The notes below the pieces were generated by a model, which was not told the origin of the DNA, did no database searches, and saw only the letters and a program-made list of their open reading frames with translations. This document shows positions 5,430 through 55,624 of a DNA stretch of 64,000 nucleotides, piece by piece (position 1 is the stretch's first letter; the number at the start of each line of letters is the position of its first letter). Position numbers and translations under genes: made by a program. The DNA is taken from assembly GCA_025823825.1 (NCBI GenBank), contig GCA_025823825.1_4720.1, one strand, 5' to 3'. Source of the DNA: a phage.

Positions 5430-5495
5430 CTTTATCTCCTTAACGGGTGCTGGTAACGCAGCATAAACCCTCCCCGAAGGGAGGGCGGTTAACGT

Positions 5496-6053
5496 TCACT
5501 CCATCCATACTTCTTCGTCGTAATGATTTTCTATCGCATTACGCCAAAAACGTACGGTGTCCAAACTAATCGGTGCATAAAAATGCTGATCAACGCCTAC
5601 ATTAAGTCCGTTGGCTTTCGCTAACATACAGCGATGAATATGACCGAATAAATTAAAGTAGCCTGGGTTTCTTTCGCTGGGCTTATGGCATAGCCAGTAG
5701 GATTCGTCATTGCTAATCGGCAACACCAACGGATGTTCATAAACCGCAGCAAACCCCATACCGAGCAATTTATCACGCCACGCTTCAAAGCTTAATCCTG
5801 TCGCTTTGTATGCGTCCTCGTCCCAATTCCCCAATACCAATTGAACCTGGATATCAGAACGAATGGCTTCCACGAACTCGAACTTACCCCAATCACCTAA
5901 ATGCCACAACACACTGTTCTTTGGAAGCTTGTTGATGGCTTTCAGCATATGCTGGTTCATATCGGCGACGCTTGCGAACGGACGGCGTGAATACGTCCAC
6001 GTACGCTCGCTATCAAAATGGGTATCCGACATAAAGAAGATGGGTGGGGTCAT
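5496..6053 (-). CDS. calcineurin-like metallophosphoesterase
   Basis: Motifs SDTHF (DxH), GDWG (GD), GNWD (GNHD-like), GHIH (GHxH) in canonical order. Confidence 0.65.
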   Translation of the reverse strand: MTPPIFFMSDTHFDSERTWTYSRRPFASVADMNQHMLKAINKLPKNSVLWHLGDWGKFEFVEAIRSDIQVQLVLGNWDEDAYKATGLSFEAWRDKLLGMGFAAVYEHPLVLPISNDESYWLCHKPSERNPGYFNLFGHIHRCMLAKANGLNVGVDQHFYAPISLDTVRFWRNAIENHYDEEVWME

Positions 6054-6532
6054 TGATTTAATTGCTCCAGAAATGCACGACCTGATTTACTTGCTTTTAA
6101 ATGCTGTTCTGCGGAAGTAAGCAGAAGATCGGTTGGTGTGAACGCAGCGCTACCTTTCCACTCTGTTTTCAGTTTACCCTCTTCGATACTGAACTGAATC
6201 AGTTGTTGGGTGCCGAAGTTAAGCGTGTTCGTCGCGGCGCTAAATACACCACCCATCATGCTGTAACCAAAGACTTTCACGTTTTCCGTGTAGAAGTCAT
6301 TGTCGATCAATTTGTTCTGGAGCTCGAGTTGGTCGGACGGTAGCAATCCCCCATCAAAGACGCTTAAAATACCAGCCAGGCGATACATACTCACCTTTCC
6401 TGAAACACCCACCACGTAATTGCCGTACAGGGTTTCTTCCAGTTTAGCAACAACGGTGCGATCGTCGGAGGTTTTCATCGAAACCTCAATACCATCACCA
6501 ATTTCTGTTAACGTTAAATCAACGATGCTCAT
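6050..6532 (-). CDS. hypothetical protein
   Basis: 160-aa ORF, 4-nt overlap with upstream gene. Confidence 0.5.
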   Translation of the reverse strand: MSIVDLTLTEIGDGIEVSMKTSDDRTVVAKLEETLYGNYVVGVSGKVSMYRLAGILSVFDGGLLPSDQLELQNKLIDNDFYTENVKVFGYSMMGGVFSAATNTLNFGTQQLIQFSIEEGKLKTEWKGSAAFTPTDLLLTSAEQHLKASKSGRAFLEQLNQ

Positions 6533-6554
6533 TCATTATTCTCCGCTTTCATGT

Positions 6555-7241
6555 TTAACACATGATTTCACCATGTTTCTTTTCGACATACGTATAAACA
6601 TCATCCAAATAAGCAATGAGTTTATCACGATCCGCACAAAGCGATTTAATCGCCGCAATCTCTTTCATATAAAGCTGCTGACCTAACGCTGGATACGTAA
6701 TCCAAGCGTAGCCGTCAGGCGCAAATTTAGAAATAAGATAATCGGCGGTTTCCTGTAATGCGAACTCTTTGCTCATCTGACCGTAACGATGTTCGATTGC
6801 GCGGATACCAAAACGTTCGCTATCAAGACGACCCATATCCGCCAAACGAAGCACCTGAGAAGCAACCGAACTACGTGGACCAGAGTACGAGGCACGATGT
6901 TCGGCAATAAGTACGCGTATCTCTTCGATGTCTTCCGGTGTGAAAATATGCTGCTCGTTACGAAGCAGGATAACCGACGCACGAATACCCCCGATAAGGT
7001 GGTGGTAGGTTCTGTTTTCATGGCAAGCGATATCATGCATAAAAGCAGCTGTTAATAGACGGCGGCGTTCGGTAGGTCTAATAATCCCGACCACATCAGC
7101 AAGTTCATTTGCCAGTTCAACAACAGCAAGCACATGTTCTTCTTGATGTGCAAGATCGTTCTTCCGAATATTTTCAATTACTTCAGCGCGTGTTTCCTGA
7201 GATAAGAAATTTAAACAATCCAACGAATATAAAGATTTCAT
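6555..7241 (-). CDS. HD-domain phosphohydrolase-like protein
   Basis: HQEEH ... FMHDIACHE resembles the H...HD metal-binding motif; promoter-like motif 42 nt upstream. Confidence 0.5.
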   Translation of the reverse strand: MKSLYSLDCLNFLSQETRAEVIENIRKNDLAHQEEHVLAVVELANELADVVGIIRPTERRRLLTAAFMHDIACHENRTYHHLIGGIRASVILLRNEQHIFTPEDIEEIRVLIAEHRASYSGPRSSVASQVLRLADMGRLDSERFGIRAIEHRYGQMSKEFALQETADYLISKFAPDGYAWITYPALGQQLYMKEIAAIKSLCADRDKLIAYLDDVYTYVEKKHGEIMC

Positions 7242-7282
7242 CGCACGTACCTCTTTGAATCTATTAATAAATTTTCTTTACT

Positions 7283-7306
7283 CACGTAAGTAATATAGCC
7301 GTGAAA
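7283..7306 (-). promoter_or_regulatory. promoter-like motif (TATATTAC-containing), copy 1
   Basis: Plus strand CACGTAAGTAATATAGCCGTGAAA; minus strand TTTCACGGCTATATTACTTACGTG, 42 nt upstream of start codon at 7241. Confidence 0.5.
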
Positions 7307-7385
7307 GGATTTGTGTTGGCCCGTTTCGATGCCCATCGTATTTTATGGATTGTCGAATGACGTCATTTTAAGGGACATCCCCGGC

Positions 7386-7419
7386 CTCCTCCCCAGGAAA
7401 GGTGTGGGGAGGAGTTTTT
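7386..7419 (+). terminator. stem-loop plus T5 (intrinsic terminator-like)
   Basis: CCTCCTCCCC / GGGGAGGAG stem followed by TTTTT, just upstream of helicase start. Confidence 0.45.
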
Positions 7420-7449
7420 ATCATACATTCTATTAAATCGAGCGCGATT

Positions 7450-9531
7450 ATGTTGGATAGAATCAATCGTCTAATGAACCGAATAACGGTTAAAAATCAG
7501 AGTAACAATACCGTGCATATCGGGGGTATCGATGCCTGGCGTCTTTCAGATGACATTCAGCGAATATGGGGTACCTCCCGATTTATGAAACATATGTTTC
7601 GTAATTTCTCTTCTAGTGGACTCAGCCTCCACAACTTTTACCTCCCCGATTTCGTTTATATTCTCGAGACGATCATCGAAGCAAAGAATACCCGCAGTAA
7701 CAAACGCATGCTGAAACACCTTATTGAGGTACTGCTACAGGAAACCTGGTTGCAAAATACCACAATCGAGCAACCTGCAATCCTCGATAAAGCACGCATG
7801 AACAAAATGCTAACGCTCTCTTTGTTCGATTATCAAGATGAGTTTATCGACATCTATAACCGTAACGTACCTAAATACCGACTGAAAGGATACGTGTGTG
7901 CGATGGGTGCTGGTGCGGGTAAAACAATCACCGCACTGGCATTAAGCTCCGCAATGAACGTCGATGTATTTGTGGTCTGCTGTCCTAAGAACACCATGCG
8001 TTCAGCATGGCAATCCGATGTAAACAAAGCCATCGTTGACCCTGCAACAGAAACCGCGTTCTGGTCAGATACGATGCCACCATCACAGCTGCAGAAAAGC
8101 GATAAGTACTATTTTCTGCATTATGAATCGATGGGTTTATTAAACGATGTAATGATCAAGCATAAACGCACAGCGAAGCGCGTGTTGATCGTGGTTGATG
8201 AAAGCCATAACTTCAACGACAAGAACAGTCAACGTTCCCAACGACTGGTTGATCTCGTACAGACGATGCGTCAGACCATGAATGCGGATGTGCACGTCTT
8301 GTTTATGTCAGGTACACCTGTTAAACAAATGGGTTCTGAGATGATCCCATGTTTAGGTTGTATCGACCCGATGTTCCAAGGACAGGTGGTCGATAGCTTC
8401 AAAGCGATTTACGGTTTAACCAGCAGTCGCGCTAACGATATCCTCAGACATCGTCTTGGGTTCATGATGCATGTCGTACCTAAAGAGGCTTACCGTAAAA
8501 CCCGTCCGGAAGTTCAGGATGTTTACGTGAAGCTCCCTAACGGTAGCGATTATACCATCTCAAGTATCCGCGACGACATGGCGATATTTGTACGCGATCG
8601 GGCGAAGTATTACAAGGATAACTGGGGACACTACAGAAAGATTTTTGATGACGCCTTGGACTACTATCGTAAGACTATTCGTACCGACGGAGAACGTAAA
8701 GAGCTATCTCGATACGAATCGATTGTTGCTCGTTTCCAGAAAGGTTACGACCCCGTCAGAGACAAAGAAGATGCGATGTTCTGCAACGCGTTTGAAAAAC
8801 GTTCCATCATGCCGGTTCTTCCTTCTGATTTAAGGATTGCTTTCAAAGACGCTAAGAGTGTCATCAAGTACGTTGGGTTGAAAATTCAGGGTGAGGCGTT
8901 GGCCCGTGTTCTCGGTGCAGCCCGCATTCGGTGTCATGTCGATATGGTGGAGTACATCGACTTCGAAGGGTATATCAACAACGCTGAAGCCAAGGTGTTG
9001 ATCTTCACGTCGTACGTTCAGGTGGTTGAGCGTGTCGACAACATGCTTCGTGATGCGGGTTTCTTACCGGAACCCATTTACGGGAAGACCAACAAAAACA
9101 TCAACCAAATACTTGCTCGTTTACGCGACGATCCCGACAGCGGCCCCGCTATCGCAACATTTGATAGCTTAGCTGAAGGGGTTCCGATGTTGATGTGTAA
9201 CGTGGGTCTCTTCTTGAACAACCCATGGCGTTCATCCGATGAAATCCAAGCCATCAGCCGTCTCGATCGTGTAGGGCAAACGCAACCGGTTCGGATTTAT
9301 CGTTTCATGTTAGATACGGGAAGCGAGGGTAACGTTTCTACACGTAGCCACGAAATCATGGAGTTAAGTCGGCAGCTTGTTGAAGAAATCACGGGTGTCA
9401 AATACGTGGTGAACAAGCAAGACGATGTTAACTTGCAAGAAACGTTGGCGATGGAAGGATACGATCAATACGTTACCGTAAACACCACGGAATACGATAT
9501 TAAACCACGACCTGCGTTCTTGGAATGGTGA
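7450..9531 (+). CDS. SF2 (SNF2/DExH-like) helicase
   Basis: Walker A GAGAGKT and DExH box VVDESHNF; track start 7402 is a GTG inside a terminator hairpin, so ATG 7450 (MLDRINRL) is preferred. Confidence 0.7.
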   Translation: MLDRINRLMNRITVKNQSNNTVHIGGIDAWRLSDDIQRIWGTSRFMKHMFRNFSSSGLSLHNFYLPDFVYILETIIEAKNTRSNKRMLKHLIEVLLQETWLQNTTIEQPAILDKARMNKMLTLSLFDYQDEFIDIYNRNVPKYRLKGYVCAMGAGAGKTITALALSSAMNVDVFVVCCPKNTMRSAWQSDVNKAIVDPATETAFWSDTMPPSQLQKSDKYYFLHYESMGLLNDVMIKHKRTAKRVLIVVDESHNFNDKNSQRSQRLVDLVQTMRQTMNADVHVLFMSGTPVKQMGSEMIPCLGCIDPMFQGQVVDSFKAIYGLTSSRANDILRHRLGFMMHVVPKEAYRKTRPEVQDVYVKLPNGSDYTISSIRDDMAIFVRDRAKYYKDNWGHYRKIFDDALDYYRKTIRTDGERKELSRYESIVARFQKGYDPVRDKEDAMFCNAFEKRSIMPVLPSDLRIAFKDAKSVIKYVGLKIQGEALARVLGAARIRCHVDMVEYIDFEGYINNAEAKVLIFTSYVQVVERVDNMLRDAGFLPEPIYGKTNKNINQILARLRDDPDSGPAIATFDSLAEGVPMLMCNVGLFLNNPWRSSDEIQAISRLDRVGQTQPVRIYRFMLDTGSEGNVSTRSHEIMELSRQLVEEITGVKYVVNKQDDVNLQETLAMEGYDQYVTVNTTEYDIKPRPAFLEW

Positions 9532-9537
9532 TTAAGA

Positions 9538-9575
9538 AGCCCTGCCGTCAAGCAGGGCTTTATGCTGCGTTTGTT
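9538..9575 (+). terminator. intrinsic terminator-like hairpin after helicase gene
   Basis: AGCCCTGC-CGTCAA-GCAGGGCT followed by T-rich run. Confidence 0.5.
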
Positions 9576-9626
9576 GCAAGATCGTATGACGTATATGCGT
9601 TGTACTTATTTAAAAAGGCAGAATAA

Positions 9627-11081
9627 ATGAAACTCAAACAAAGCTGGAAAGACGAACTTCTCGCGTTAGTAAACAACAAAAACAGTTTACAGCTGACATT
9701 AGACGACGTAAAATTTGAACTAACTGAACCGGTAAGCGAAGTGCCCGGAACAGTCGTCGTTACGATCAAACCGAACGATGATAGCCGTTACTTTAACGAG
9801 CAGTCTCTGACCTACATCCGTCGAGACATCGCTAAAAACTTCACCGGGATCCCGTTACGTGTTATCGTTAAAAATGATACCGTCGTAAGGGATATCATCA
9901 ATACGATTGCTGAACGTTACGGATTGGTATTTGACACAACCGTTGACTTCCTCGAATCAGAGCTGAATAAGCAGATTACGTTCGAAGACACCGGTATTAA
10001 AGACATTACGGTTCCGGTTGCAAACACGTCTTATGTTTGGGCTGGTAATCTTCAGTTCAATATCGCTAACGATACGTTAAGCTTGATTACGATCATCAAG
10101 GAAACCAATCTTACGAATCTGGTTTATCTGGATGGCGTTGAAGCTGACACAACCGGATCGTTATTATTAGCAACGGCCTCGATTATCGACGATAACGGAA
10201 ATACCGAAACAACTGAAGGTGTCCTTGATGCCGAGTACTTCCAGAATGTCCTGAATGTCATGGTTCGTTATGGTGATATTACCAGCGAACAAATGCAACA
10301 AGCAATGCAGACAATTAACCAAAACGAAGACGTTCGTGAAGTGGAGGTTAAGTCATACGGCGACTCTGAGCTGTTGGTAACCACAAAGAAAGATTGGGCT
10401 ATCGGTAACCTTAAGGGCGCTATGGCAGTTGTTCGCAACGCTCAACCGAAACCAATTCAGTACATTCTCAAAACGAATGGCGGCTCCGTTACACTAGCAT
10501 TGGACGGTTGGACAAATATTTCCATCGATTGGGGTGATGGGAATAAAGCAACATTACCAGGCGGACAAACTCGCGGATTCCACGAATACAGTGACGGTAC
10601 AGAACGTACGATTGTAGCTACTGGTGTCCTCTCAAACCCTGAAGCACCAACACAGACACAAACCATCAGCGGCGATAACATCACTGAAATCGTTGACTGG
10701 AACAACGGATTACCGCAGGCTGTACAATTAACGGGATTAACCAGTTTGATTAAGGTTCCCGATTATATCCCGTCATACTGGACAACGTTGGAAAGTTTGT
10801 TCGAGAGCTGCTCATCGATAAACGACGTAAACATCACGAAATGGAATACCGGTAACGTCACATCAATGAAGAATTTGTTCTTTGGCTGTAACGTCTTCAA
10901 CCAACCGATCATCGTATGGGATGTTACCCATGTAACAAATATCGACAATATGTTCTCGGGATGTTCGGCGTTCAACCAGGATCTAAGGATGTGGTCATTC
11001 CCAGCGGATACTTCCCGCAACAACTACGATAACGGTGCTACAGCCTGGCGGTCAGAGTATCGTCCAAGCTTCGATTTGTAA
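9627..11081 (+). CDS. DUF285 (BspA-like) repeat protein, possible virion or adhesion protein
   Basis: C-terminal repeats FFGCNVFNQPIIVWDVTHVTNIDNMFSGCSAFNQDLRMW match the DUF285 repeat pattern. Confidence 0.5.
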   Translation: MKLKQSWKDELLALVNNKNSLQLTLDDVKFELTEPVSEVPGTVVVTIKPNDDSRYFNEQSLTYIRRDIAKNFTGIPLRVIVKNDTVVRDIINTIAERYGLVFDTTVDFLESELNKQITFEDTGIKDITVPVANTSYVWAGNLQFNIANDTLSLITIIKETNLTNLVYLDGVEADTTGSLLLATASIIDDNGNTETTEGVLDAEYFQNVLNVMVRYGDITSEQMQQAMQTINQNEDVREVEVKSYGDSELLVTTKKDWAIGNLKGAMAVVRNAQPKPIQYILKTNGGSVTLALDGWTNISIDWGDGNKATLPGGQTRGFHEYSDGTERTIVATGVLSNPEAPTQTQTISGDNITEIVDWNNGLPQAVQLTGLTSLIKVPDYIPSYWTTLESLFESCSSINDVNITKWNTGNVTSMKNLFFGCNVFNQPIIVWDVTHVTNIDNMFSGCSAFNQDLRMWSFPADTSRNNYDNGATAWRSEYRPSFDL

Positions 11082-11096
11082 AAAAAAAAAAAAAAA
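11080..11096. repeat. A17 homopolymer (T17 on minus strand)
   Basis: 17 consecutive A overlapping the TAA stop of the DUF285 gene. Confidence 0.9.
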
Positions 11097-11108
11097 TAGT
11101 TAGCATAT

Positions 11109-11146
11109 CTTCCTCCCTACCCATAACGGGCGGGGAGGAAGGTTTT
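11109..11146. terminator. bidirectional terminator-like hairpin
   Basis: CTTCCTCCCTACCC / GGGCGGGGAGGAAGG stem with TTTT on the plus side and the T17 run on the minus side, between convergent genes. Confidence 0.55.
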
Positions 11147-11159
11147 ATGGCGTTATAGC

Positions 11160-11498
11160 TTAGAACCAGAGTTCTTTCATGAGGTAGGCTTCCATATCGT
11201 AGATAAGCCACGCATCGGGGATTTCTAAAGGATCGTCTTCGGTTAAGGTCAGCATGTGCAGGGCGAACGCACGCTTGATATCTTCCAACAGCTTATCATC
11301 ACCGTAATCCTCGGGTAGTTTACGGTCAACCAGCTGGGTTTGTTTATAGACGTCGCGGAACGCTTCAGGGCTGTGTTTGTCCATCGGGAATTGTTCAGCA
11401 GCCTGAACCATCGTCAACGTCCAGCTTACAACATTGTAACGCTCACCGTTAATTTCACTGAACTGATCATCGATTAAACAGATTTGTTGTACGTTCAT
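11160..11498 (-). CDS. hypothetical acidic protein
   Basis: 112-aa ORF at end of a minus-strand operon. Confidence 0.5.
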   Translation of the reverse strand: MNVQQICLIDDQFSEINGERYNVVSWTLTMVQAAEQFPMDKHSPEAFRDVYKQTQLVDRKLPEDYGDDKLLEDIKRAFALHMLTLTEDDPLEIPDAWLIYDMEAYLMKELWF

Positions 11499-12388
11499 TC
11501 ATTTTCTCCATTCTTATCTTGGTCGCAATCACACTCTTCGACGTCTTTCTTACTTAAACGTAAGACACCTAGTGCAGCATGCTTGAGTTCTTGCAAAGCG
11601 CTTTTCAGCTGACCTTCTTCATCGAAATCAAAATACTTCTCGTTGTAGCTTAATGCCGGAATCATATTTACGAGAGGTTCGATGGCGGGCATCAGCATTT
11701 CAATGACGACCTTAGGATCGACAAAACGTTCAAACCCTTCAGGAAGTTTGCTCGCTACAACCTTATCGTTCTTGATGTAGAATTTGTTCTTGAATAGATC
11801 GTCAAGAATAGCATTCTCTTCATCCGTACGTTTTGCGTGAGGACGATCGATCATCTGCACAAACACACCACTCAACGCTTCAGGCAAAGTCGGATTTTCG
11901 CGAAGATAAGTTCCGGCCGGAATTTCAATGTCGATCTTCGTCCACTCAACAACCTGATGGTCTCGCGTATAGATGACGTCAACTTCCCATGCCAGACCAT
12001 CAGCGCTTTCTACGGTGTAACGTGTTTTCGCCTGGCCTTCAGGAGCCATACGTTCGATCGCATCAAACATCTCGACTGGGATTTCGACTTCGCTTTCCGT
12101 TGCATCGCCTGGACCGCGATACACCTTCGTGGTCATGATGTATTTCGGTTCTTCGTTATCGATCTGTATAGCTCGTGCTCGTACTTGACCTTTCACACCA
12201 CCAACGGCCGTGTTATCAAACAACCATTGATGTTGCACCATATGTTCGATTTTTGATGCGACTTGACGAAGACGTTCAACACCGTCTTCGGCCAGTTTAC
12301 CAAAGAAGACCAGCTCACGTTCCTGCTGTGTCTCACCACTTAACATCATTAAATTGGCGATTTGTTTCACGCCTCTTACTTTTGACAT
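11495..12388 (-). CDS. hypothetical protein
   Basis: 297-aa ORF, 4-nt overlap with downstream gene. Confidence 0.5.
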   Translation of the reverse strand: MSKVRGVKQIANLMMLSGETQQERELVFFGKLAEDGVERLRQVASKIEHMVQHQWLFDNTAVGGVKGQVRARAIQIDNEEPKYIMTTKVYRGPGDATESEVEIPVEMFDAIERMAPEGQAKTRYTVESADGLAWEVDVIYTRDHQVVEWTKIDIEIPAGTYLRENPTLPEALSGVFVQMIDRPHAKRTDEENAILDDLFKNKFYIKNDKVVASKLPEGFERFVDPKVVIEMLMPAIEPLVNMIPALSYNEKYFDFDEEGQLKSALQELKHAALGVLRLSKKDVEECDCDQDKNGENE

Positions 12389-12456
12389 ACATGCTCCGGT
12401 TATAAGGGCCTGCTTCGAGGCCCTTCATTGATTTTTGATTCCACCAAACGCTATCG

Positions 12457-14031
12457 TTACAATTCAAAATCTTCATCGATAACACGCTGGGTAAGCACTT
12501 TGTCGCTGAAGAACTCCACCTTGCGCTGATGGTATTTACGGTGCGCTTCGATAGAAGTACATACCAGATACCAGAACGTTGGCGTCATTCCTTCAAACTT
12601 TCCTTTCAGCTGACGCAGTCGTCCCAACACCTGAATGTTACCGGTTCGTGACCCCATCGCTAATGTCATGAACGTCATCACCAAGTCAGGAAGGTCGATA
12701 CCTGTACCTGCCGATTTCACCGTTGTAACGCTAATATCGTTATCCAGCAAGACCATGAAGTCTTCTTCAGCAGTATAAGGACCGATTTCTAACTCAGGGA
12801 TACGTTCACTGAGATAATGCGACAACGACTTACACATATCGACGGTTGCACAATACACCAGCATCTTCATACCTTCCTGATACTGGTTCATGAAACCCTT
12901 GATAATAACGGTATAGATGAAGTTAAAATACGCGAGTTTGAGTTGCTTGTTCTTCATGATAGACTGTTCGAATATCGTGTGCGAATAAGCTCCACCAAAC
13001 CCTTTGTATCTGACTTTATCTGTACTGCGTAGTCGGTACGTTACCGCATTTACCGCAATGTATTTCTTGTATTCGCCTTTCGCATAACGGGCTTCTTTCG
13101 GATACATCAAATACAGCATCTGTTCGATAAACGGATCATCGGATACCGCTGTTGCCGACAGATAAATGATTTCCGGAATATTGGCGTAACACTTGACCTT
13201 AAACAAGAAATGCAATGCTTCGTGACACTCGTCATGAATCAGCAAACCTATGCCGGTCTTTTCCCAAAACTCAGCGGGATGAAAGGCATATGGCGCAACG
13301 CAGTTATTCTTCTCGTAGTCCGCAATATAACGTTGGAACATGTTCAAGGAGAACAATGCGATTTTGAAGTCGAGTTCACCTTGTTCAACCAAGGTTTGAA
13401 ACTCCAACATACTGTAACGAGGAATGTCGGGATGCGGTGGATCCTCCTTAGCGTTCCCGCGTATCTCGATAACGTCCCCTGGTTCCATCCCGAAGAAGTT
13501 CAGCAGTGAGCTTCGCCAACCTGGCATGTATCTCGGCGACAGAATGATACCCGTCCGTACACCGCGTCGGAAGGTGATCTCCTGCGACATGGCCGTTTTT
13601 CCTGACCCCGTTTGAGCGGTGTTTAGGCTCATTCTGAAGGGGGTATCCTTACCCCCGTCCATGTACTCCAACCATTCTTGCTGATCTTGACGCCATGGAA
13701 ACTTCCATTTCTTTACGAACTCCACTTCTTTACCTGGTACCGGATCGTGATAGACGATTTCCAACCACTCTTTTCGTATCCCTCGGGAAAAGATAAAATC
13801 CAAAAACGATTTCAACTGTTCACGGAGTAAGTATACCTCGCTATAATCGCTTCTTGCCGCGGCATACGTGTTTATGGTATCGGTAACCATTCTCCGTGTA
13901 CGAGGGTCACGCCGTTTCCTCAGATGCAAACAACGGTCTCGAAGGTAATGGCCGATAAGATGGGCAAATCGAAGTCCGTATCCGCTCAGCCTCATGCCGT
14001 GCGAGAAGACGTCGATACGAGCTAACTTCAT
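12457..14031 (-). CDS. SF2 DEAD/DEAH-box helicase-like ATPase
   Basis: Walker A TGSGKT and DEAH-like HDECHE; ATGA start/stop overlap with upstream beta-prime-C gene. Confidence 0.6.
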   Translation of the reverse strand: MKLARIDVFSHGMRLSGYGLRFAHLIGHYLRDRCLHLRKRRDPRTRRMVTDTINTYAAARSDYSEVYLLREQLKSFLDFIFSRGIRKEWLEIVYHDPVPGKEVEFVKKWKFPWRQDQQEWLEYMDGGKDTPFRMSLNTAQTGSGKTAMSQEITFRRGVRTGIILSPRYMPGWRSSLLNFFGMEPGDVIEIRGNAKEDPPHPDIPRYSMLEFQTLVEQGELDFKIALFSLNMFQRYIADYEKNNCVAPYAFHPAEFWEKTGIGLLIHDECHEALHFLFKVKCYANIPEIIYLSATAVSDDPFIEQMLYLMYPKEARYAKGEYKKYIAVNAVTYRLRSTDKVRYKGFGGAYSHTIFEQSIMKNKQLKLAYFNFIYTVIIKGFMNQYQEGMKMLVYCATVDMCKSLSHYLSERIPELEIGPYTAEEDFMVLLDNDISVTTVKSAGTGIDLPDLVMTFMTLAMGSRTGNIQVLGRLRQLKGKFEGMTPTFWYLVCTSIEAHRKYHQRKVEFFSDKVLTQRVIDEDFEL

Positions 14032-16034: not shown

Positions 16035-16179
16035 TATTGCTTTCCGATTTAAATGGTTTTATCATACGGTTTACCAAATCCGTTGGACTTTACTATCGTT
16101 GTGATAGCATCGGGAATCCCTTCCCTTAGGTTATGTAGGTGTTAATATATCTCCACTGCTGACCTTTATGTCGGCAGCA

Positions 16180-16665
16180 TTATCCAGCTTTCTGTTGTAA
16201 AGCGTATGGATCCATAGCGTCTGACATATCCGCAAAAACGGTGAGAATAAACCCCTTTATCTGTCTCACCTCGGTTACACGAAGCCCTTTATCATTGCGA
16301 TATACGTTTTCTTCACCGACTAACTTTGGTCGAATAACATAAACTCCATCAACAAGCGGGAATGTCGGATACGGATAAATACCAATACGAATGATGTTTG
16401 GGTGATCGCCTAGAAGGTCACGTCCAAACTTATCGACTCGACCATAAATCGCCCCATCCGCACCTTCCACTTCAATGAGATCATTTCGAATATCCTGAAA
16501 TAGTTGCTCTAACGTGTCGGCGGGATACGCATATGCGACGCCTAACGCCGGATCCTCGACGGTTTTGACACTGAATCCGTTAAGCCAAACAATCCGTTCA
16601 TCCGCCCATGTTTCTTCATATACCGTTAATCCATCGCCGTATATGTTGGCGTGTGCTATCTCCAT
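16180..16665 (-). CDS. hypothetical protein
   Basis: 161-aa ORF with AAGAGGAAA RBS. Confidence 0.5.
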   Translation of the reverse strand: MEIAHANIYGDGLTVYEETWADERIVWLNGFSVKTVEDPALGVAYAYPADTLEQLFQDIRNDLIEVEGADGAIYGRVDKFGRDLLGDHPNIIRIGIYPYPTFPLVDGVYVIRPKLVGEENVYRNDKGLRVTEVRQIKGFILTVFADMSDAMDPYALQQKAG

Positions 16666-16778
16666 AATCTCATTTCCTCTTATACGTTAGGATAGATGAC
16701 ATGTTGGATATACGTTGCCTTTGCATATATTGCTTTATTTCCGTCAGAAATAACGGAAAATAAAAACAACGACATAGT

Positions 16779-16809
16779 TCCCTCCCACCTCCACATGGGA
16801 GAGGGAGGG
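16779..16809 (-). terminator. stem-loop plus T-rich tract
   Basis: CCCTCCCACCTCC / GGGAGAGGGAGGG with T-rich sequence 3' on minus strand. Confidence 0.4.
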
Positions 16810-16822
16810 CTATTCGTGTTTA

Positions 16823-17185
16823 TTACTCTATGCTGTCTTCTTCAGCACAATCCTCTTCTGAACCGTCGAACGTTTTCTGCACTGCAGTGGTATCCCAGTT
16901 GGCAGCGTAATCAGCCATCGCTTCGCGCAGTGCTTCTTCACCAGCATCACCGGCCAGGTCAAGCACAACCAAACCTTGCGCGACGTTTTGAGCGACAGTA
17001 TCAATAACGGTCGCATCTTCTTCAAAACTACGTACCGGTTCAATGGTGCCTACATCAACAGCATAGTTCGTGGTCGCTGTAAGCACGGCGACTTGTAGCG
17101 CGTCGCTATCTTCATCATGCAATGCTGCTTCAATACCGATTGGACGGGCCAGTTCTTGCAGTGTTAATTTGCGAATTAAGTTCAT
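16823..17185 (-). CDS. hypothetical acidic protein
   Basis: 120-aa ORF followed by stem-loop plus T-tract. Confidence 0.45.
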   Translation of the reverse strand: MNLIRKLTLQELARPIGIEAALHDEDSDALQVAVLTATTNYAVDVGTIEPVRSFEEDATVIDTVAQNVAQGLVVLDLAGDAGEEALREAMADYAANWDTTAVQKTFDGSEEDCAEEDSIE

Positions 17186-17206
17186 TATATTTTCCTCAGG
17201 TGAATG

Positions 17207-17635
17207 TTAGCAATCGTTTAAAACTTTTTCGATACGATGGTTGACGAATTCATTGAACGACTCTTCGGCTTGTTCGATAATTTCATCAACGTCGATATCT
17301 AATTGTTGGGGTTGGATAACATGCTCTTTCATGGTTTCTAGCCAGTATTCGGCTTTAACCATAACGTTAGCGACATGTTCGACCTGACTGCGTATGTCGA
17401 CGATCTGGCAGTCAGGATTGTTAATATCGATGATGTGTCCGTGGTGGTTGATAAAACCTAGCTTATTTGATGCCCTTACCGCATCGCGGGTAAGTTCTTG
17501 CAAGATTAAATTATTGACGTAGTTCACTGCTACGGAACGATTTTCGTTATCACTCATACCAGGGATCCTCTTTAAGTCTTCACATTCTAGTGTTAAGCAG
17601 TTAAAATAAACCGTTCCTTTAATCAGCATAAACAT
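17207..17635 (-). CDS. hypothetical protein
   Basis: 142-aa ORF. Confidence 0.45.
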   Translation of the reverse strand: MFMLIKGTVYFNCLTLECEDLKRIPGMSDNENRSVAVNYVNNLILQELTRDAVRASNKLGFINHHGHIIDINNPDCQIVDIRSQVEHVANVMVKAEYWLETMKEHVIQPQQLDIDVDEIIEQAEESFNEFVNHRIEKVLNDC

Positions 17636-17675
17636 CCTCCTCCCACCACATGGGCAGGAGGAGGCGTAATATGCA

Positions 17676-18086
17676 TCAGAAAGGAGGACGATCTTTAAAT
17701 TCTAACAACGTGTCTTCGAAGCAAGCGATGAGTTCAGACTGCAATTCGGTACGGCCTTGTTCACCGAAGAGTTCCAGCAACATTAACCCCCGAGCGGTCT
17801 TCGTAGCAACCTCTTCGCAGATGCGGAGATCGTGAACTTCATCATCGTTGACATCTTTACGCAACTGTGCCGCAATGGGCTTAAGATTGCCGTTTTCATC
17901 GTGTTCGTCACGAAATGCATCATAAGCCGCATCGATGTTCGCGATCCGTGTCAATCCTTCAGAATCCCGCCAGTCTCGATATAATCCAAGCAGACGGTTA
18001 TGATTCTTCGTTTTGACGTTCGGTGCTGGAAGGTTGCGCAACAGATGTGGTGTAATCATTGCTATCACGCTATCCGAATGATCCAT
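17676..18086 (-). CDS. hypothetical protein
   Basis: 136-aa ORF. Confidence 0.45.
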   Translation of the reverse strand: MDHSDSVIAMITPHLLRNLPAPNVKTKNHNRLLGLYRDWRDSEGLTRIANIDAAYDAFRDEHDENGNLKPIAAQLRKDVNDDEVHDLRICEEVATKTARGLMLLELFGEQGRTELQSELIACFEDTLLEFKDRPPF

Positions 18087-18097
18087 CGTATACCTCG

Positions 18098-20651: not shown

Positions 20652-20716
20652 GATAACCCTCCCACAGCGTAAAGCGTAGGGAGGGCATTTATGCCGTCGT
20701 TCGATGACTTAACACA

Positions 20717-21997: not shown

Positions 21998-22052
21998 ATT
22001 GTATTTCCTTTTCTTTACGTCAACGGTCCCCCTACAACAGGGGACCTATGGA

Positions 22053-25229: not shown

Positions 25230-25431
25230 CAACCTCTTTTCGCGGTTCCCTGTTAAAACGTCTTCTGTGACGTCTACCACAAAGGTAATATAAGCGTGAA
25301 TAATTTTGGATTCCGGCTGAGTTATCGCTCAGCATGCAAGGCATCCCGCCGAAGCGAGACACCTTGCACTAACGGAAAATATTCGCGTTACCTTCTGAAT
25401 CGAAGACTCAGAATGCGATGCTAAAGCATTA

Positions 25432-29910: not shown

Positions 29911-30005
29911 TTCATAGAGTGGTGGAAATTCGTAGAAAGTTACAAAAATAAAAAAGAATGGGCAGCCCCTCCCCACCCGAAGGTAGGGAGAGACCGCAAA
30001 TATAC

Positions 30006-31387: not shown

Positions 31388-31469
31388 GATTGTCCTCGTT
31401 TTCAATTTTAAGATTGCATGCGGCATAAACCCTCCCCGCCTTGTGCAGGGAGGGTAGCCATTAAATGGA

Positions 31470-34756: not shown

Positions 34757-34780
34757 GGGAGGGAGGTTGCCCTCCCTCCC
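34757..34780 (-). terminator. GC-rich stem-loop between chimallin candidate and beta-prime-N
   Basis: GGGAGGGAGG-TTGC-CCTCCCTCCC perfect 10-bp stem; T-rich sequence follows after a short gap on the minus strand. Confidence 0.4.
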
Positions 34781-38051: not shown

Positions 38052-38117
38052 TCACCTCCCTCTTCCCTTGCATCCTCCCAACCCGTAAGGGAAGGGAGGA
38101 TGGGGTGGCGGGTTATG

Positions 38118-40271: not shown

Positions 40272-40338
40272 AAATCCTCCAAAAGTTATTTAGTCTGTCT
40301 ACATCATCTCGTATATCTGTTAAAAAAGAAGGACGGCA

Positions 40339-40374
40339 TAAAAAAGAACCGATCCAGCCGAAGCCAGATCGGTT
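40339..40374 (-). terminator. intrinsic terminator-like hairpin
   Basis: AACCGATC / GATCGGTT 8-bp stem directly followed by T6 on minus strand. Confidence 0.5.
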
Positions 40375-40569
40375 AAAAAGGATAATAACTGACAGAAAGA
40401 TATCGATGATGTTCGTGAAACAAGATCTTCTCTCGTGTACAATGATGCTAGATCAGAGGGAGGTTGTAACACGAGAGGTGGTCCGCCAAAGAAGGAATAA
40501 AAACACGAACCTATCTTATTTCACTGATGGCACTAACCACTCAAAATATATAGTACTGTATGTAAAAGT

Positions 40570-44368: not shown

Positions 44369-44421
44369 GCTTTCTCCTACGCGGCATAAAAGCCTGCCCC
44401 GAAGGACAGGCTCGATAGAAC

Positions 44422-46548: not shown

Positions 46549-47075
46549 TTAACGACAGCTTCCTCCCTCGGTGTTTTCGAGGGAGGTATTTGCCGTTTGA
46601 AGACTTTCAGTACGTTCGCAAATTCAGCAGCAATAATACAGGCCGAGGTTGATAGCTTATTACTGAAAATGAGATCGTCCGGTAAACAATCGAACTGAAT
46701 ACCGTATTGCGTCTTTGTCTCATCAACGATCAATGACGGTGTCGATCTTGTCTTCGCGATGTCGGTGATATACAAACGTAAAAATAATTCACCGTCTTCG
46801 CTATCCATAAAACGATAGGCGTTACCAGAAAACGCAACACATGGCGTAACGATAAATTGAACACGATCGTCGGTCGGATGGATATTTAACCAACGTTCGA
46901 TATCACTGCTACTCACATTTTGCATATTTACTACGGTAAAAGCAAATAGCGTATCATGATGTTTGGAATAATGCAGCACATACGCCGCACCTTTCTTTTT
47001 GTGAATCCCTTCAATGTATTCTATTGTCGTATAGCCGGATTTATATAGCTTTGCTTTCGGTTTCTCACTCATCAT
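46539..47075 (-). CDS. hypothetical protein
   Basis: Start near 47075 (MMSEKPK) assumed; 3' end converges on the plus gene and runs through the shared hairpin. Confidence 0.45.
   Translation of the reverse strand: MMSEKPKAKLYKSGYTTIEYIEGIHKKKGAAYVLHYSKHHDTLFAFTVVNMQNVSSSDIERWLNIHPTDDRVQFIVTPCVAFSGNAYRFMDSEDGELFLRLYITDIAKTRSTPSLIVDETKTQYGIQFDCLPDDLIFSNKLSTSACIIAAEFANVLKVFKRQIPPSKTPREEAVVNQK
46562..46598 (+). terminator. terminator-like hairpin at convergent gene junction
   Basis: CCTCCCTCG-GTGTTT-CGAGGGAGG followed by T-rich TATTTGCCGTTT. Confidence 0.5.
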
Positions 47076-49611: not shown

Positions 49612-49866
49612 GATAGGAATCCTTAGTATGTTTGATATGTTGTTTAATTGACATATTAAGTTTAAAAGAGGTTATGTTTTACGTAATGTTAATAACGTAT
49701 TCTTATCTCTATTAAGTTATGTTCTATCTAAAGATAGTAAACAGATATAATGCTCCCCACCTCCCCATTCTCCCAAGTAATACTGGCCTACCGGCCCTCT
49801 CCTTTTTAAGGGAGAGAGTAAGCATTCAGTATTGCTCAAATGAATAAGCAAAACAGTATAAACTTA

Positions 49867-49890
49867 CCGTCTCGAGACAACTCGAGACGG
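49867..49890 (-). terminator. perfect palindrome hairpin
   Basis: CCGTCTCGAG-ACAA-CTCGAGACGG, 30 nt downstream of minus-strand gene end. Confidence 0.45.
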
Positions 49891-49919
49891 CGTAGTAGTA
49901 TCTGTTTATCTCTTTTATG

Positions 49920-52755: not shown

Positions 52756-52948
52756 CAATGTGGCGGTAAAACTTTACTGACGTTGGTTATTATTTGAAGC
52801 ATAGGGCTTCACCCAGGAGTACCATCCCTTTAAGTCGTTTGTCCTCTCCTGGTTAACTGTCGTTCTCTCACAGTGCTCGACAGACCAAAAATGCTCAGGC
52901 CTCATAGCCTCCTCTGGGAATGGAACCCAGAGGAGGACTATGTTTGCC

Positions 52949-53269
52949 TTAAAATTCAATGCGACCTTTTGTCGTAAACAATACACCTCTTTGCCAACAG
53001 AAAAGATCCTCCGATTGAGCGCAAACACGAATACCCGCATCGAATAGATGTTTTGTTCTAGCGCTTAAACAATCAGGATCTTCTACATACAACAGAAGAC
53101 GTTGGCATTTATTTTGAATGCGTTCGACAAGGATGTTCTTATCGCTTAAAATAAAATGCGCGTTATCTGTTAAGTTATCGTCGGTTTCCAGCTGACCGAC
53201 AAGTTTGATTAAAATACGTAATTGCTCAAGTGTGTCATGATCAAGTGAATCGCCCATGGCGTACCTCAA
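52949..53269 (-). CDS. hypothetical protein
   Basis: 106-aa ORF followed by an 11-bp stem hairpin. Confidence 0.4.
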   Translation of the reverse strand: MRYAMGDSLDHDTLEQLRILIKLVGQLETDDNLTDNAHFILSDKNILVERIQNKCQRLLLYVEDPDCLSARTKHLFDAGIRVCAQSEDLFCWQRGVLFTTKGRIEF

Positions 53270-53342
53270 CGTTATACGTCGTTTGTATTATAATACGCTA
53301 TCGTCTCCCCGCCTGTATTAACGGGGAGTCTGCAAACTACTC

Positions 53343-55574
53343 TTAGAAAAAACCGCCCGGACGGTATTGACCCATCGTCATCCACGCATTACGAGAAATA
53401 TTCCGTTCATTCGAAGAGCGGCTTATTTGACGATAAGTATTCGCTCGTTCCTCCCTTGCTTTCGTGATCATCGCATCAATAGAAACAGCCGCTGAATCTT
53501 CCCCACGTATTTTTCCTTTATACGTAAGAAGCTCTGCCTCCAATCGATCCAAGATAAGGCCGTTGGTTTCGGTCTTAAGCAACTCATAGATTTCAGCAAC
53601 GCGTTGACGAAGCTTCGCCTGCTGTTGGTTAAGATAAGCTTCATACGGATCGATTTCACCCGTCACAGATGCCGGTAAACGACTCATGACTTTAAGTGGA
53701 TCGATACCGTAATGAATCTGTTTCTTAGCGCGCTTGATGAACCACATCGCTAACATCCAGGCGAACGTCATGTCGTCGTGCATTCCATCCTGGTGGTCGA
53801 CACGCCCATCTTTGATAACCAATCCAAGGATCTCGGAACACAACATCTTATCACGTAATTGCCCGCGGGTTTCTACAATACCTTCCATCAAGATGTCGGA
53901 ATACAACTCCATGCGTTTGCGTGCATCCGTTGTGAAGCCCAAATGCCGTTTACGTTGAGCGTACCAACTTTCATCACGCATGCTCAATGGTAATTTCAGG
54001 TCTTCGAACATCGCTGGGTTATCAGCATGTCTGTCCACAATGGTGTTGTATACACGTTTGAACACGTCGATGCCTGCTTGTCTCAGGAACTCTTCAATTG
54101 CGTCTAACAACATGATTGCGCTGCTTTTACGTTCAGGAATCAACGTAACGTTCTTAAAACGCATCATGAAGTTGGCCATCCAACGAGCAAAAGAAAGCAG
54201 GCTCAGTTTATTAAAACGTCCTGTCGCAACAACTTCTGCTGTTTCTACATCCACCATCACCAAACCGATAGCGTCACGACCTATCGCATCGCTGGTGTCT
54301 AAACCAGCAACCACCTTATTGTTCTGCATGTATGTCTCGATTTTACCTCGAGGTATATACCAGTTAATGCAGTAGCCTTCAGGTGAGATCTCGATATGGT
54401 CGATTTCACGTTGTCCTGCCATGATCATCTCAACCATCTCAGCGGTTAACGGGCTTTCTGCTGAACCGTTGGTCCAGATGTTCATGTAGTCGCGGTCTTT
54501 CTGAAGTTTATCACCTTCCGTTTCGTTCATGGTTTTTGCTAACCATTCATCACTGAATCCCAACTGAGCATGGTTCCATTGTGCCCCGATCCTGACGGTC
54601 GCCTTGCTAAGTTCACACGGTACGTTGTTCAATACCGTCTGATGGAGATGCTTTTCGTTACGGCAGTCAAAGAAACTTTCAGAGAACGGCGCTGAACGCA
54701 TGAAAACTTCATAGGCCCATTTGCCTTCACGTTTATCCAATTCACCTGCTGTTGTCGTATAGATGATACTTGTCAGGTCGCCGTTGCTTAATGCTTCATC
54801 GCGTGCCGCACCCATCGCACCGATACCAGCAGGAACAATAATTTCGATGTATTTCGTAAACGCGGTTTCGTCGCTATGGAATAGCGGGGTTGTTAGACCA
54901 CGACCGATGTTCGTTGCTTGTTTCTTATCCGAACGTGGAATCTTTACCGATAACTTGTTCTTGAAACGCGTGTAGGTTACGTTCTCTTTGTTCGATGAAT
55001 CCCGACTATCCAGCGTCCAGAGATACGCAGGTAACAGATCGCGTATACTACGCACGTCTTCTACCGTTTTCGTACGGGCGTCACCGTCTTTTGTTAACTG
55101 AATAACCTCGGTGTTTCGACTACGAACATAGGTTAGATAACAAAACAATCCTAACATGGTCATGGATTTACCGGTCTGACGTATCTGTATCTGATACCAG
55201 TTCGTTCGGGTAAATATCCCCCAGAGCATCGGAATGTTACCGCGGTTAGCACGGAATGAAATTTTGTTATCACCCGCTTTAGCCGGAACACGCATCACTT
55301 CACGGAAGAAGTACCATGGATTAAGATAGCATTCCGCACTGATCATCTGAATCTGTTCTGACGTCAAATTCGGTGCGTGAGGATCAACACCAATCAGTCT
55401 TGGGTTTAATAACGCCATGAAAAACGCAGAGTTCCGGACACCGAATTCACGACGATACAAGATCGCTAAATCACGCCAACTTGTGTTTGTTGTTTCCCAG
55501 TGTGGAACAGCCTGAGGAAAATAATCCCAATCTTCCTCAAACAGGATGATTTTCTTCGGATCGACAATCGACAT
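53343..55574 (-). CDS. terL: terminase large subunit (ATPase-nuclease)
   Basis: Deviant Walker A QIRQTGKS resembles T4 gp17 SRQLGKT; HSDETAF as Walker B candidate; Asp-rich C-terminal half consistent with RNase H-like nuclease; GGAGGAG RBS. Confidence 0.6.
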   Translation of the reverse strand: MSIVDPKKIILFEEDWDYFPQAVPHWETTNTSWRDLAILYRREFGVRNSAFFMALLNPRLIGVDPHAPNLTSEQIQMISAECYLNPWYFFREVMRVPAKAGDNKISFRANRGNIPMLWGIFTRTNWYQIQIRQTGKSMTMLGLFCYLTYVRSRNTEVIQLTKDGDARTKTVEDVRSIRDLLPAYLWTLDSRDSSNKENVTYTRFKNKLSVKIPRSDKKQATNIGRGLTTPLFHSDETAFTKYIEIIVPAGIGAMGAARDEALSNGDLTSIIYTTTAGELDKREGKWAYEVFMRSAPFSESFFDCRNEKHLHQTVLNNVPCELSKATVRIGAQWNHAQLGFSDEWLAKTMNETEGDKLQKDRDYMNIWTNGSAESPLTAEMVEMIMAGQREIDHIEISPEGYCINWYIPRGKIETYMQNNKVVAGLDTSDAIGRDAIGLVMVDVETAEVVATGRFNKLSLLSFARWMANFMMRFKNVTLIPERKSSAIMLLDAIEEFLRQAGIDVFKRVYNTIVDRHADNPAMFEDLKLPLSMRDESWYAQRKRHLGFTTDARKRMELYSDILMEGIVETRGQLRDKMLCSEILGLVIKDGRVDHQDGMHDDMTFAWMLAMWFIKRAKKQIHYGIDPLKVMSRLPASVTGEIDPYEAYLNQQQAKLRQRVAEIYELLKTETNGLILDRLEAELLTYKGKIRGEDSAAVSIDAMITKAREERANTYRQISRSSNERNISRNAWMTMGQYRPGGFF

Positions 55575-55624
55575 ATAAACTCCTCCGATGGAGGGTGCCG
55601 AGCACCCTCCATCGTTGTATTACT

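Follow-up and report, generated by a model that had tools for sequence, protein, structure and literature searches.

GC-rich intergenic hairpins of a Goslar-type jumbo phage as probable transcription terminators related to those of phiKZ and 201phi2-1

Do the GC-rich hairpins that recur between the genes of a jumbo phage end transcripts, control translation, or serve another role? The question is raised by a 64,000-nt stretch of phage DNA (GenBank assembly GCA_025823825.1, contig GCA_025823825.1_4720.1), hereafter the window, meaning the whole stretch that was analyzed. A preliminary description had listed 14 hairpins built from CCCTCCC- and GGGAGGG-like arms in intergenic gaps of this DNA, and had divided them into apparent intrinsic terminators with a 3' T-tract and elements that might instead sequester a Shine-Dalgarno sequence or mark a processing site. 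The hairpins are very probably transcription terminators, and about half of them belong to a module conserved in the jumbo phages phiKZ and 201phi2-1. The structure, flank, orientation, and placement of the hairpins and their homology to a known family are observed here, and RNA 3' ends and reporter activity are available from the literature on relatives. The terminator family is already known in phiKZ and 201phi2-1; the present analysis adds its occurrence in a Goslarvirus of Escherichia coli, its conservation across the Chimalliviridae, and the exact base of the motif at which the RNA of relatives ends.

A 12-kb piece of the window is 98.1% identical to Escherichia phage vB_EcoM_Goslar, and the Goslar genes of the region map onto the window at 84-99.6% identity per gene in unchanged order. 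The gene content includes chimallin, a divergent family B DNA polymerase, the PhuZ tubulin, the large terminase, and the tail sheath, and several RNA polymerase beta/beta' fragments are also encoded. Because of the identity to Goslar and the presence of chimallin, PhuZ, DNA polymerase, and RNA polymerase genes, the source phage is assigned as a Goslar-type strain of a nucleus-forming Chimalliviridae jumbo phage that has its own virion and non-virion multisubunit RNA polymerases.

Structure, flank, and placement of the hairpins

The hairpin set was obtained by a scan for compact hairpins (-12 kcal/mol or better), used in place of a sliding-window fold scan that proved too permissive (448 matches per strand), together with a search for CCTCC/GGAGG word pairs. 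It comprises 22 hairpins (Table 1), namely the 14 described before and eight additional ones (4029, 9537, 12404, 25334, 38074, 40347, 49866, and 52908). Coding sequence takes up 91.4% of the window, with most genes on the - strand, and 21 of the 22 hairpins lie within the 8.6% that is non-coding. The intergenic siting given earlier thus stands except at 46562, which overlaps the annotated last 16 codons of the convergent gene gp232 and is not in a gap. The earlier positions refer to the + strand, whereas most of the genes concerned are on the - strand. All 14 hairpins of the preliminary description are real, stable stem-loops with RNA folding energies of -16 to -31 kcal/mol. RNAfold on the sense strand folded all 20 hairpins tested as single hairpins within this same range (z-scores -2.3 to -7.4; 0-6 of 200 shuffles equally stable).

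The pattern CCTCC-N3-24-GGAGG has 14 matches at about 11 loci, compared with 0.25 +/- 0.52 expected, and none of 100 shuffles reached 14. CCCTCCC-like and GGGAGGG-like arms had been ascribed to every listed hairpin; a C-rich 5' arm paired with a G-rich 3' arm is present at about ten loci (5467, 7386, 11109, 16779, 17636, 20655, 31429, 46562, 38074, and 52908). However, 29962 and 53305 have CTCCC-like variants, the arm polarity is reversed at 34757 and 55586, and the stems of 22025 and 44390 are unrelated to CCCTCCC/GGGAGGG. The remaining hairpins likewise have other GC-rich stems. Stem length ranges from 7 to 16 bp. Eight hairpins have loops of 4 nt, five of which are UUCG (all five in the sense orientation, none antisense), and the remainder have either a loop of 3-13 nt or an inner stem. 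The hairpins are conserved between the window and Goslar, with few differences, which are located in the loops; at 9537 the two phages have different stems, in which C-G in one place is replaced by T-A with pairing kept. The Goslar record labels four sites of the set (7386, 9537, 40347, and 44390) as putative terminators.

The most informative common feature is a shared 3' flank, TTATGYYG, that the preliminary description did not mention. On the strand of the upstream gene, the sequence conserved 3' of the hairpins reads (T)TTAT-G/A-Y-Y-G-T. In the conserved module it directly adjoins a GC-rich stem that in the typical case has a CCYCCC 5' arm and a GGGRGG 3' arm and in many copies a C(UUCG)G loop. 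The stem-flank junctions are GGGAGGGT-TTATGCTGCG at 5467, GCAGGGCTT-TATGCTGCG at 9537, GGGAGGGCA-TTTATGCCGT at 20655, GGGAGGGT-TTATGCCGC at 31429, GGTT-CTTTTTTATGCCGT at 40347, and GGCAGGCTT-TTATGCCGC at 44390. All six occurrences of TTATGCYGY in the window are directly 3' of a hairpin. Ten of the 22 hairpins have the broader form TAT(G/A)YYG no more than 16 nt beyond their 3' side (0.5 expected), in all ten cases in the sense direction of the gene ending there, and a strong hairpin precedes 40% of TTATGYYG sites vs 1.3% of random positions. Three flank-bearing copies (9537, 40347, and 44390) lack the CCYCC arm, which indicates that the stem is needed as a structure and the flank as a sequence.

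The earlier terminator reading extends to the whole family on the basis of position, orientation, and homology to mapped terminators, but the division by T-tract did not hold up. Only four or five of the 22 hairpins have at least five T in the 8 nt after the stem (7386(+), 11109(+), 17636, and 40347, plus 29962 with an offset), compared with the ten that have TAT(G/A)YYG. A generic scan for sigma-70 promoters and T-run terminators gave no enrichment, with 15 terminator candidates vs 18.5 expected in positions 1-20000.

All five convergent junctions have a hairpin, as do 16 of the 57 co-directional and one of the six divergent ones. The 16 occupied co-directional junctions are all among the 25 with gaps of at least 15 nt, and none is an overlapping or tightly abutting gene pair. 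At the convergent junctions 11109, 38074, and 52908, TATG is present on both sides of the hairpin, and two-sided flanks in the window are restricted to convergent junctions. The placement and orientation of the hairpins are the pattern expected of transcript-ending signals, not of promoters or translational operators.

These observations bear directly on translational control, in which the gene downstream would use the GGGAGG arm as its Shine-Dalgarno sequence and the CCCTCC arm would keep that sequence sequestered until the stem was melted or processed. GGGAGG is a perfect Shine-Dalgarno core, and at three sites (16779, 31429, and 17636) the G-rich arm is followed after 4-6 nt by an ATG that shares the frame of an annotated or possible start. 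However, these in-frame ATGs are the motif's own. Elsewhere, the arm is 15-254 nt from the annotated start at most sites, and the genes have their own AGGAG-like sites outside the stem. For example, at 5467 the motif ATG opens a 10-codon open reading frame (ORF) and gp156 has an AAGGAGA site of its own 30 nt further along, gp236 near 44390 has an AGGAGA site in another frame, and at 55586 both the GAGGAG ribosome-binding site and the ATG of the terminase gene lie between hairpin and gene, outside the stem. At 11 of 16 flanks, the motif ATG opens ORFs of only 3-43 codons or reads antisense into the next gene. Furthermore, the ATG-bearing flank is found on both sides at convergent junctions, at which no gene begins, the unrelated stems of 9537, 40347, and 44390 keep the flank with no Shine-Dalgarno-like arm, and the hairpins are concentrated at gene ends, including every convergent junction. 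A sequestered Shine-Dalgarno element, as suggested in the preliminary description, is therefore highly improbable.

A separate observation concerns gene annotation. The sequence GGGAGGG-TTTATG mimics a ribosome-binding site followed by a start codon, and for this reason has likely swayed gene calling: the annotation starts both gp167 (31 aa; at 16779) and gp183 (at 31429) on the motif ATG, and for gp183 an alternative start with its own GAGGA site is found 13 codons downstream. Both annotated starts were probably influenced by the motif. Sites of such start mimicry are 16775, 31426, 17629-17635, and 4017-4050, and gp169 and gp153 have alternative in-frame starts adjoining hairpins, including an in-frame ATG at 4017 near hairpin 4029. 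Some gene starts, and the tiny gp167 itself, may be annotation artefacts.

Homologous terminators and RNA ends in other jumbo phages

In phiKZ, 133 terminators were mapped by ONT-cappable-seq (Putzeys et al., 2024; PMC10914365), and 61 of these share the motif BCCYCCCCHWWDGGGRRGGBYTTATKYYGT, a stem-loop followed by TTAT (PMC10914365). In 201phi2-1, motif A is the same as that of phiKZ and has 59 copies, an elongated version includes a motif B, and 15 terminators are bidirectional (Poppeliers et al., 2024; PMC11512511). Eight 201phi2-1 terminators were active in reporter constructs in Pseudomonas chlororaphis (PMC11512511). The same modules can be read in phiKZ DNA, e.g., GGCCCTCCC-TTCG-GGGAGGGCT-TTATGTTGT behind the major head gene, and some phiKZ and 201phi2-1 copies also have stems other than CCYCCC/GGGRGG.

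A scan of IMG/VR for CCCTCCC-N3-9-GGGAGGG-N0-3-TTATG found at least 120 stretches, and all counts given for relatives are among the matches listed. Contigs of at least 190 kb, including 201phi2-1 (316,674 bp), account for 84 of these stretches and often carry many copies each. The loci of the relatives encode homologues of terminase, sheath, chimallin, DNA polymerase, PhuZ, and RNA polymerase at 25-40% identity and in synteny. Hairpins are shared at the orthologous junctions DNA polymerase/gp245, after terminase, gp221-to-terminase, after helicase gp164, and gp233/gp232. The four bases after TTATG, which are outside the search pattern, are C+T in 88%, C+T in 90%, G in 61%, and T in 58% of the listed copies. 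Among the 120 listed loci, CCYCC hairpins are located at 60 convergent vs 9 divergent junctions, and 43 of the 60 convergent ones have a two-sided flank. At co-directional junctions of the listed relatives, the flank is downstream only in 14 cases and upstream only in four. As a side observation, copies at 23 of 52 co-directional junctions of the listed relatives are two-sided, which a one-way terminator would not require.

The repeated, palindromic, and intergenic nature of the hairpins might also suggest repeats that act on duplex DNA, such as repetitive extragenic palindromic (REP)- or miniature inverted-repeat transposable element (MITE)-like elements, or recombination or protein-binding sites. 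Many listed relatives (loci L003-L122) have a long perfect palindrome, ACGGCATAAAG-CCCCTCCC-loop-GGGAGGGG-CTTTATGCCGT, and this extended symmetric form would fit such a role. However, loop lengths of 3-13 nt would alter the half-site spacing on duplex DNA, and whole stems are replaced with full compensation while the flank is kept. In addition, UUCG tetraloops in the listed relatives are 32 sense vs 1 antisense, and the orientation of the flank tracks transcription. Unlike mobile insertions, the copies mark the ends of orthologous genes even between phages whose proteins are only 25-40% identical. A DNA-level role is thus extremely improbable, and a dimeric binding site on duplex DNA was rejected on the same grounds.

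A covariance model (R1) was built from 42 copies from other jumbo phages and none from the window. A fixed-geometry seed was used because the MAFFT alignment of copies with variable loops was out of register. In the window, R1 matches 5456-5492(-), 9533-9570(+), 44379-44417(-), and 31418-31460(-) with E values of 2.6e-5 to 2.5e-3, in addition to four weaker matches, and two of the four strong matches have no CCYCC arms. In 879 kb of related loci, the model has 231 matches. In an alignment of 147 distinct copies fitted to the model, 99.7% of cells are paired and all eight base pairs have double changes (193 cells vs 45.6 in shuffles, with 0 of 500 shuffles reaching this number, and at most 15 in slid controls).

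The position of the RNA end was examined by placing the eight transcript ends printed in PMC11512511 on the 201phi2-1 genome. All eight fall on the YY of TTATGY[Y]G, before the conserved G and about 8 nt past the GC stem. With the end in brackets, they are ggctgggc-TTTATGC[T]GT, ggactggc-TTTATGT[T]GT, ggctgggc-TTTATGC[C]GC, gggaggc-TTTATGA[C]GT, gggagg-TTATATG[C]CGC, ggttggc-TTTATGC[C]GT, ctcaggc-TTTATAC[C]GC, and ggaggggc-AATATGT[T]GT. An RNA end on the YY before G accounts for the conservation of the whole flank, including YYGT. By homology, we infer termination of the Goslar-type copies at ten predicted bases, eight on the - strand (that at 55586 placed more loosely) and two on the + strand (Table 1).

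Stable hairpins could also set or stabilize mRNA 3' ends after read-through, as processing sites or exonuclease blocks. Very stable hairpins with many sense-oriented UUCG tetraloops are expected for 3'-end protection, 12404, 22025, 25334, and 53305 have no U-rich tract, and 3'-end sequencing of the relatives by itself cannot separate release from trimming. However, all eight 201phi2-1 ends share a single position in the motif, about 8 nt past the stem, whereas exonuclease trimming normally halts nearer the stem and would not conserve YYGT. Moreover, the eight tested 201phi2-1 modules lowered downstream reporter expression in uninfected Pseudomonas. A purely post-transcriptional role is thus improbable as an alternative, although the two roles are not exclusive, as a terminator hairpin also stabilizes RNA.

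The TATG next to the hairpins also invites comparison with promoters. The late promoter of phiKZ is TATG with the +1 at G, and the non-virion RNA polymerase binds this TATG through its beta-like lobe (PMC4666361, PMC12809450). The hairpins could accordingly be parts of terminator-promoter cassettes, in which the adjacent TATG would be a late promoter core (T-3 A T G+1). The phiKZ consensus is necessary but not sufficient, the missing specificity determinant being unknown (PMC4666361, PMC7598289, PMC12809450), and the distances of 17-110 nt from TATG to gene start in the window, including the ribosome-binding site, would be plausible leaders. However, promoters at two-sided convergent flanks (43/60 in the listed relatives; 11109, 38074, and 52908 here) would make antisense RNA only, and hairpins are rare at divergent junctions (1/6 in the window; 9 vs 60 convergent in the listed relatives). 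The phiKZ model late promoter P119L has TATG but no upstream hairpin, and published late-promoter logos have no upstream conservation (PMC7598289, PMC4666361). The 201phi2-1 RNA end maps 2-3 nt beyond the G of TATG, and it is this mapped end that explains the conserved YYGT. Such cassettes are very unlikely as a general explanation. A terminate-and-restart variant may nevertheless operate at co-directional junctions.

Several points weigh against reading the entire family as terminators. About half of the 22 hairpins have no conserved flank. Among them, 12404, 22025, 25334, and 53305 also have no T-run, and terminator status there is a matter of position and stability alone. Hairpin 7386 occupies a divergent gap, ahead of a gene. 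The published phiKZ IUPAC motif, searched ungapped with up to three mismatches, has no match in the window. This absence is explained by the different loop and spacer lengths in the window, and gapped patterns and the covariance model were used instead of the fixed-length string. With the alignment fitted to the model, part of the double-change signal comes from register shifts of the T within CCCTCCC. The mapped 3' ends of the relatives could in principle stem from exonucleolytic trimming, not polymerase release, and ONT-cappable-seq is stated to be precise to about 2 nt. Finally, a literature search found no published transcript-end map of Goslar, so termination at the window sites is a matter of homology. 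Most simply, the hairpins that have a T-run or no conserved flank are ordinary terminators or 3'-end-stabilizing stem-loops of the same transcription units.

Proposed mechanism and features of individual sites

Termination at the module may proceed as follows. A hairpin would form in the nascent RNA as the phage multisubunit RNA polymerase passes the palindrome, when the RNA-DNA hybrid would be the weak, U/A-rich UUUAUGYY. The RNA would then be released at the second Y, directly before the conserved G and about 8 nt past the stem. This would be the geometry of an intrinsic terminator in which the place of the long U-run is taken by a short U/A tract with a Y(-1)/G(+1) junction. Because the palindrome is the same on both strands, copies flanked on both sides would terminate convergent transcription. 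The Y(-1), the G(+1), and the Gs of the 3' arm near -10 presumably act like a consensus elemental pause, which is known for bacterial RNA polymerase.

There is a small chance that the flank does more than weaken the hybrid and acts as a specific stop word that the non-canonical RNA polymerases of the phage recognize. In that case, the non-template TATG, to which the beta-like lobe of the non-virion polymerase binds at late promoters (PMC12809450), would hold the elongating enzyme at the Y/G junction after hairpin formation and trigger release. One four-base word would then both start and stop transcription, and the conservation of the G-rich 3' arm (G at about -10) and of Y(-1)/G(+1) across the Chimalliviridae would be explained.

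Table 1. Hairpins of the window. RNA 3' ends are predictions by homology; E values are those of R1 matches; energies are in kcal/mol.
Hairpin	Coordinates (strand)	Location	Stem	3' flank	Energy	Predicted RNA 3' end	E value
4029	4029..4058 (-)	gp154/gp153 gap	GAAGGTGGATGG/CCATCCACCTTC, non-CCYCC	ACGAGGCTATTATGGCG	-21 to -23		
5467	5458..5486 (-)	after gp157	canonical module, GCCCTCCC-UUCG-GGGAGGGU	TTATGCTGC	-16.6	5460	2.6e-5
7386	7386..7414 (+)	divergent gp159/gp160 gap	CTCCTCCCCA/TGGGGAGGAG	+ strand, TTTTTATC	-20.6		
9537	9537..9568 (+)	after helicase gp160	canonical module without CCYCC arm, AAGCCCTGC/GCAGGGCTT	TATGCTGCG	-18	9566	4.6e-5
11109	11109..11141 (.)	convergent gp161/gp162	bidirectional	TATG both sides (+ GTTTTATGGCG; - ATATGCTAAC)	-25		weak, both strands
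12404	12404..12425 (-)	after helicase gp164	AAGGGCCT/AGGCCCTT	no conserved flank			
16779	16767..16809 (-)		CCCTCCCTCTCC.../...GGAGGTGGGAGGG	ACTATGTCGT	-21.7	16771	
17636	17621..17664 (-)		CCTCCTCCTGCC/GGTGGGAGGAGG	ATGTTTATGCTGA	-23.6	17625	
20655	20655..20697 (+)	convergent gp172/gp173	CCCTCCC...GGGAGGG	+ TTTATGCCGT, canonical; - TTATC	-17.9	20695 (+)	0.11
22025	22025..22046 (-)	gp174/gp173	GGTCCCCT/AGGGGACC, identical in Goslar	no conserved flank	-17.5		
25334	25316..25369 (-)	204-nt gp176/gp175 gap	16-bp UUCG hairpin (25334-25369) and second small hairpin GCTGAG/CTCAGC		-27 (z -7.4)		
29962	29962..29997 (-)	after gp182	16-bp UUCG hairpin	CCATTCTTTTTTATTTTTG (classical T-run)	-31.3		
31429	31420..31455 (-)	after gp184	canonical module, ACCCTCCCUGC/GCGGGGAGGGU	TTATGCCGC	-22.5	31422	2.5e-3
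34757	34757..34780 (-)	after chimallin gene	reverse polarity, GGGAGGGAGG/CCTCCCTCCC	TTATACGT	-23.8		
38074	38066..38108 (.)	convergent gp245/DNA-polymerase	bidirectional, CATCCTCCC.../...GGGAGGATG	TTATG both sides			
40347	40333..40374 (-)	75 nt upstream of DNA polymerase gene	module, AACCGATCTGGC-UUCG-GCTGGATCGGTT	CTTTTTTATGCCGT	-18.3 (z -6.6)	40335	
44390	44381..44413 (-)	after gp235	canonical module without CCYCC arm, GAGCCTGTCC-UUCG-GGGCAGGCTT	TTATGCCGC	-18	44383	2.3e-4
46562	46562..46586 (+)	13 nt past gp233 (+)	CCTCCCTCG/CGAGGGAGG	TATTTGCCGT	-18.8		
49866	49855..49891 (-)	after gp227	GCCGTCTCGAG/CTCGAGACGGT	AAGTTTATACTGT	-20.5	49855	
52908	52908..52936 (.)	convergent gp224/gp223	bidirectional, CCTCCTCTGGG/CCCAGAGGAGG	CTATG both sides	-24.3		
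53305	53305..53328 (-)	after large terminase gene	CTCCCCG.../...CGGGGAG	no conserved flank	-16		
55586	55570..55614 (-)	gp221/terminase gap	reverse polarity, 13 bp	GAGGAGTTTATATGTCG	-26.6 (z -7.2)	55570 (loosely)	

Hairpin 7386 lies 35 nt upstream of the helicase gene gp160, has its T-run on the + strand, and contains the beginning of a GTG-start ORF (at 7402); it is possibly an attenuator-type terminator in a 5' untranslated region (UTR). Hairpin 12404 differs from Goslar in the loop only, and in distant relatives, too, the gp164 homologue is followed by a hairpin. About 150 nt around the hairpin at 25316-25369 were compared and are 100% identical to Goslar. The hairpin at the 38074 junction is also present in relatives with 25-35% protein identity, relatives likewise have a hairpin behind the terminase gene (as at 53305), and one relative (locus L092) has a hairpin at the same junction as 55586. 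The flank of 49866 resembles that of a mapped 201phi2-1 terminator at 230,027 (TTTATACCGC).

Three long non-coding gaps each contain one strong hairpin: 25228-25431 (204 nt), 40272-40569 (298 nt), and 49612-49919 (308 nt). These gaps are candidate small-RNA or promoter regions; short terminated 5'-UTR RNAs have been reported in phiKZ (PMC10914365). No Rfam family matched anywhere in the window at the gathering score, and a tRNA scan of the window found none. The paper on enhanced crosslinking and immunoprecipitation (eCLIP) of ChmC reports no binding motif that would tie ChmC to the hairpins.

Other features of the window concern its divergence from Goslar. The gene for the leucine-rich-repeat protein gp161 (9627-11081) is the most divergent in the window (83.8% identity), with a 3' end that is unalignable, and just past it an A17 homopolymer (11083-11099) corresponds to about A11 in Goslar. 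The genes gp164, gp162, and gp148 are only 91-93% identical to Goslar, vs 96-99.6% for most other genes. These uneven identities, including that of gp161, suggest mosaic exchange. The RNA polymerase beta' gene at 32364-33500 (-) also departs from the Goslar version, and the HNH endonuclease ORF (about 1065 nt) of the Goslar group I intron is absent from it. Positions 32720-33105 have a 98% match to the Goslar intron RNA, and 33106-33473 have no Goslar counterpart. Two sub-threshold matches to Rfam Intron_gpI, about 72 nt apart, are found at 32717-33083 (46.9 bits, gathering score 50; E 2.4e-10) and 33156-33492 (32 bits; E 6.9e-6). The beta' region may hold two ORF-less group I introns, in which case the ORF at 33365-34714 would read into an intron.

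Comparison with known systems

Goslar is the E. coli model for phage-nucleus biology, and the modules show for the first time where transcription units probably end in a quarter of its genome, with 3' ends predicted to the base. The terminator grammar (hairpin and UUUAUGYY, then G) is kept across jumbo phages of different hosts with 25-40% protein identity, and this shared grammar bears on how the unusual RNA polymerases of jumbo phages terminate. The modules are compact, strong, and often bidirectional, and may serve as engineering parts.

Like bacterial intrinsic terminators, the modules have a GC-rich hairpin, an RNA end mapped in relatives or predicted here about 7-9 nt past the stem, a weak U/A-rich hybrid, and bidirectional use at convergent genes, and the modules of relatives are active without additional factors in reporter constructs. 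However, the module tract is only UUUAU followed by G/A-Y-Y, and most copies fail to reach five T in 8 nt. In addition, the flank TTATGYYGT is conserved in sequence at 25-40% protein identity, as are the polarity and sequence of the arms. Phage T4 reportedly has intergenic C(UUCG)G hairpins and promoter/stem-loop cassettes. The likeness lies in repeated, very stable UUCG hairpins between the genes of a large lytic phage, in which stem-loops punctuate small transcription units. T4 differs in using the host RNA polymerase, and its hairpins are not known to have CCYCC/GGRGG arms or a TTATGYYGT flank.

The phiKZ late promoter shares the TATG found directly 3' of the window hairpins, but in the window TATG stands at gene ends, on both sides of convergent junctions, and conservation extends to YYGT. 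The phiKZ terminator motif is a closer match. It has a C-rich 5' arm, a G-rich 3' arm, and a short loop, given as HWWD (4 nt) in the published consensus, followed by TTAT-K-YY-G-T, and it is intergenic and convergent in placement. Both phages are Chimalliviridae with their own virion and non-virion RNA polymerases, and a model that includes phiKZ copies matches the window. The differences are the host (E. coli) and genus (Goslarvirus), the more variable loops (3-13 nt) and stems (7-16 bp), and the flank, which only about half of the window hairpins have; the 3' ends are mapped in phiKZ and predicted from sequence here. In comparison with 201phi2-1, two-sided flanks in the window are confined to convergent junctions, and the activity of the Goslar-type copies is predicted. 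Motifs A and A/B of 201phi2-1 have the same hairpin followed by TTTATGYYGT, at positions conserved relative to orthologous genes, and the elongated A/B stem is the symmetric CATAAAG...CTTTATG form of many relatives.

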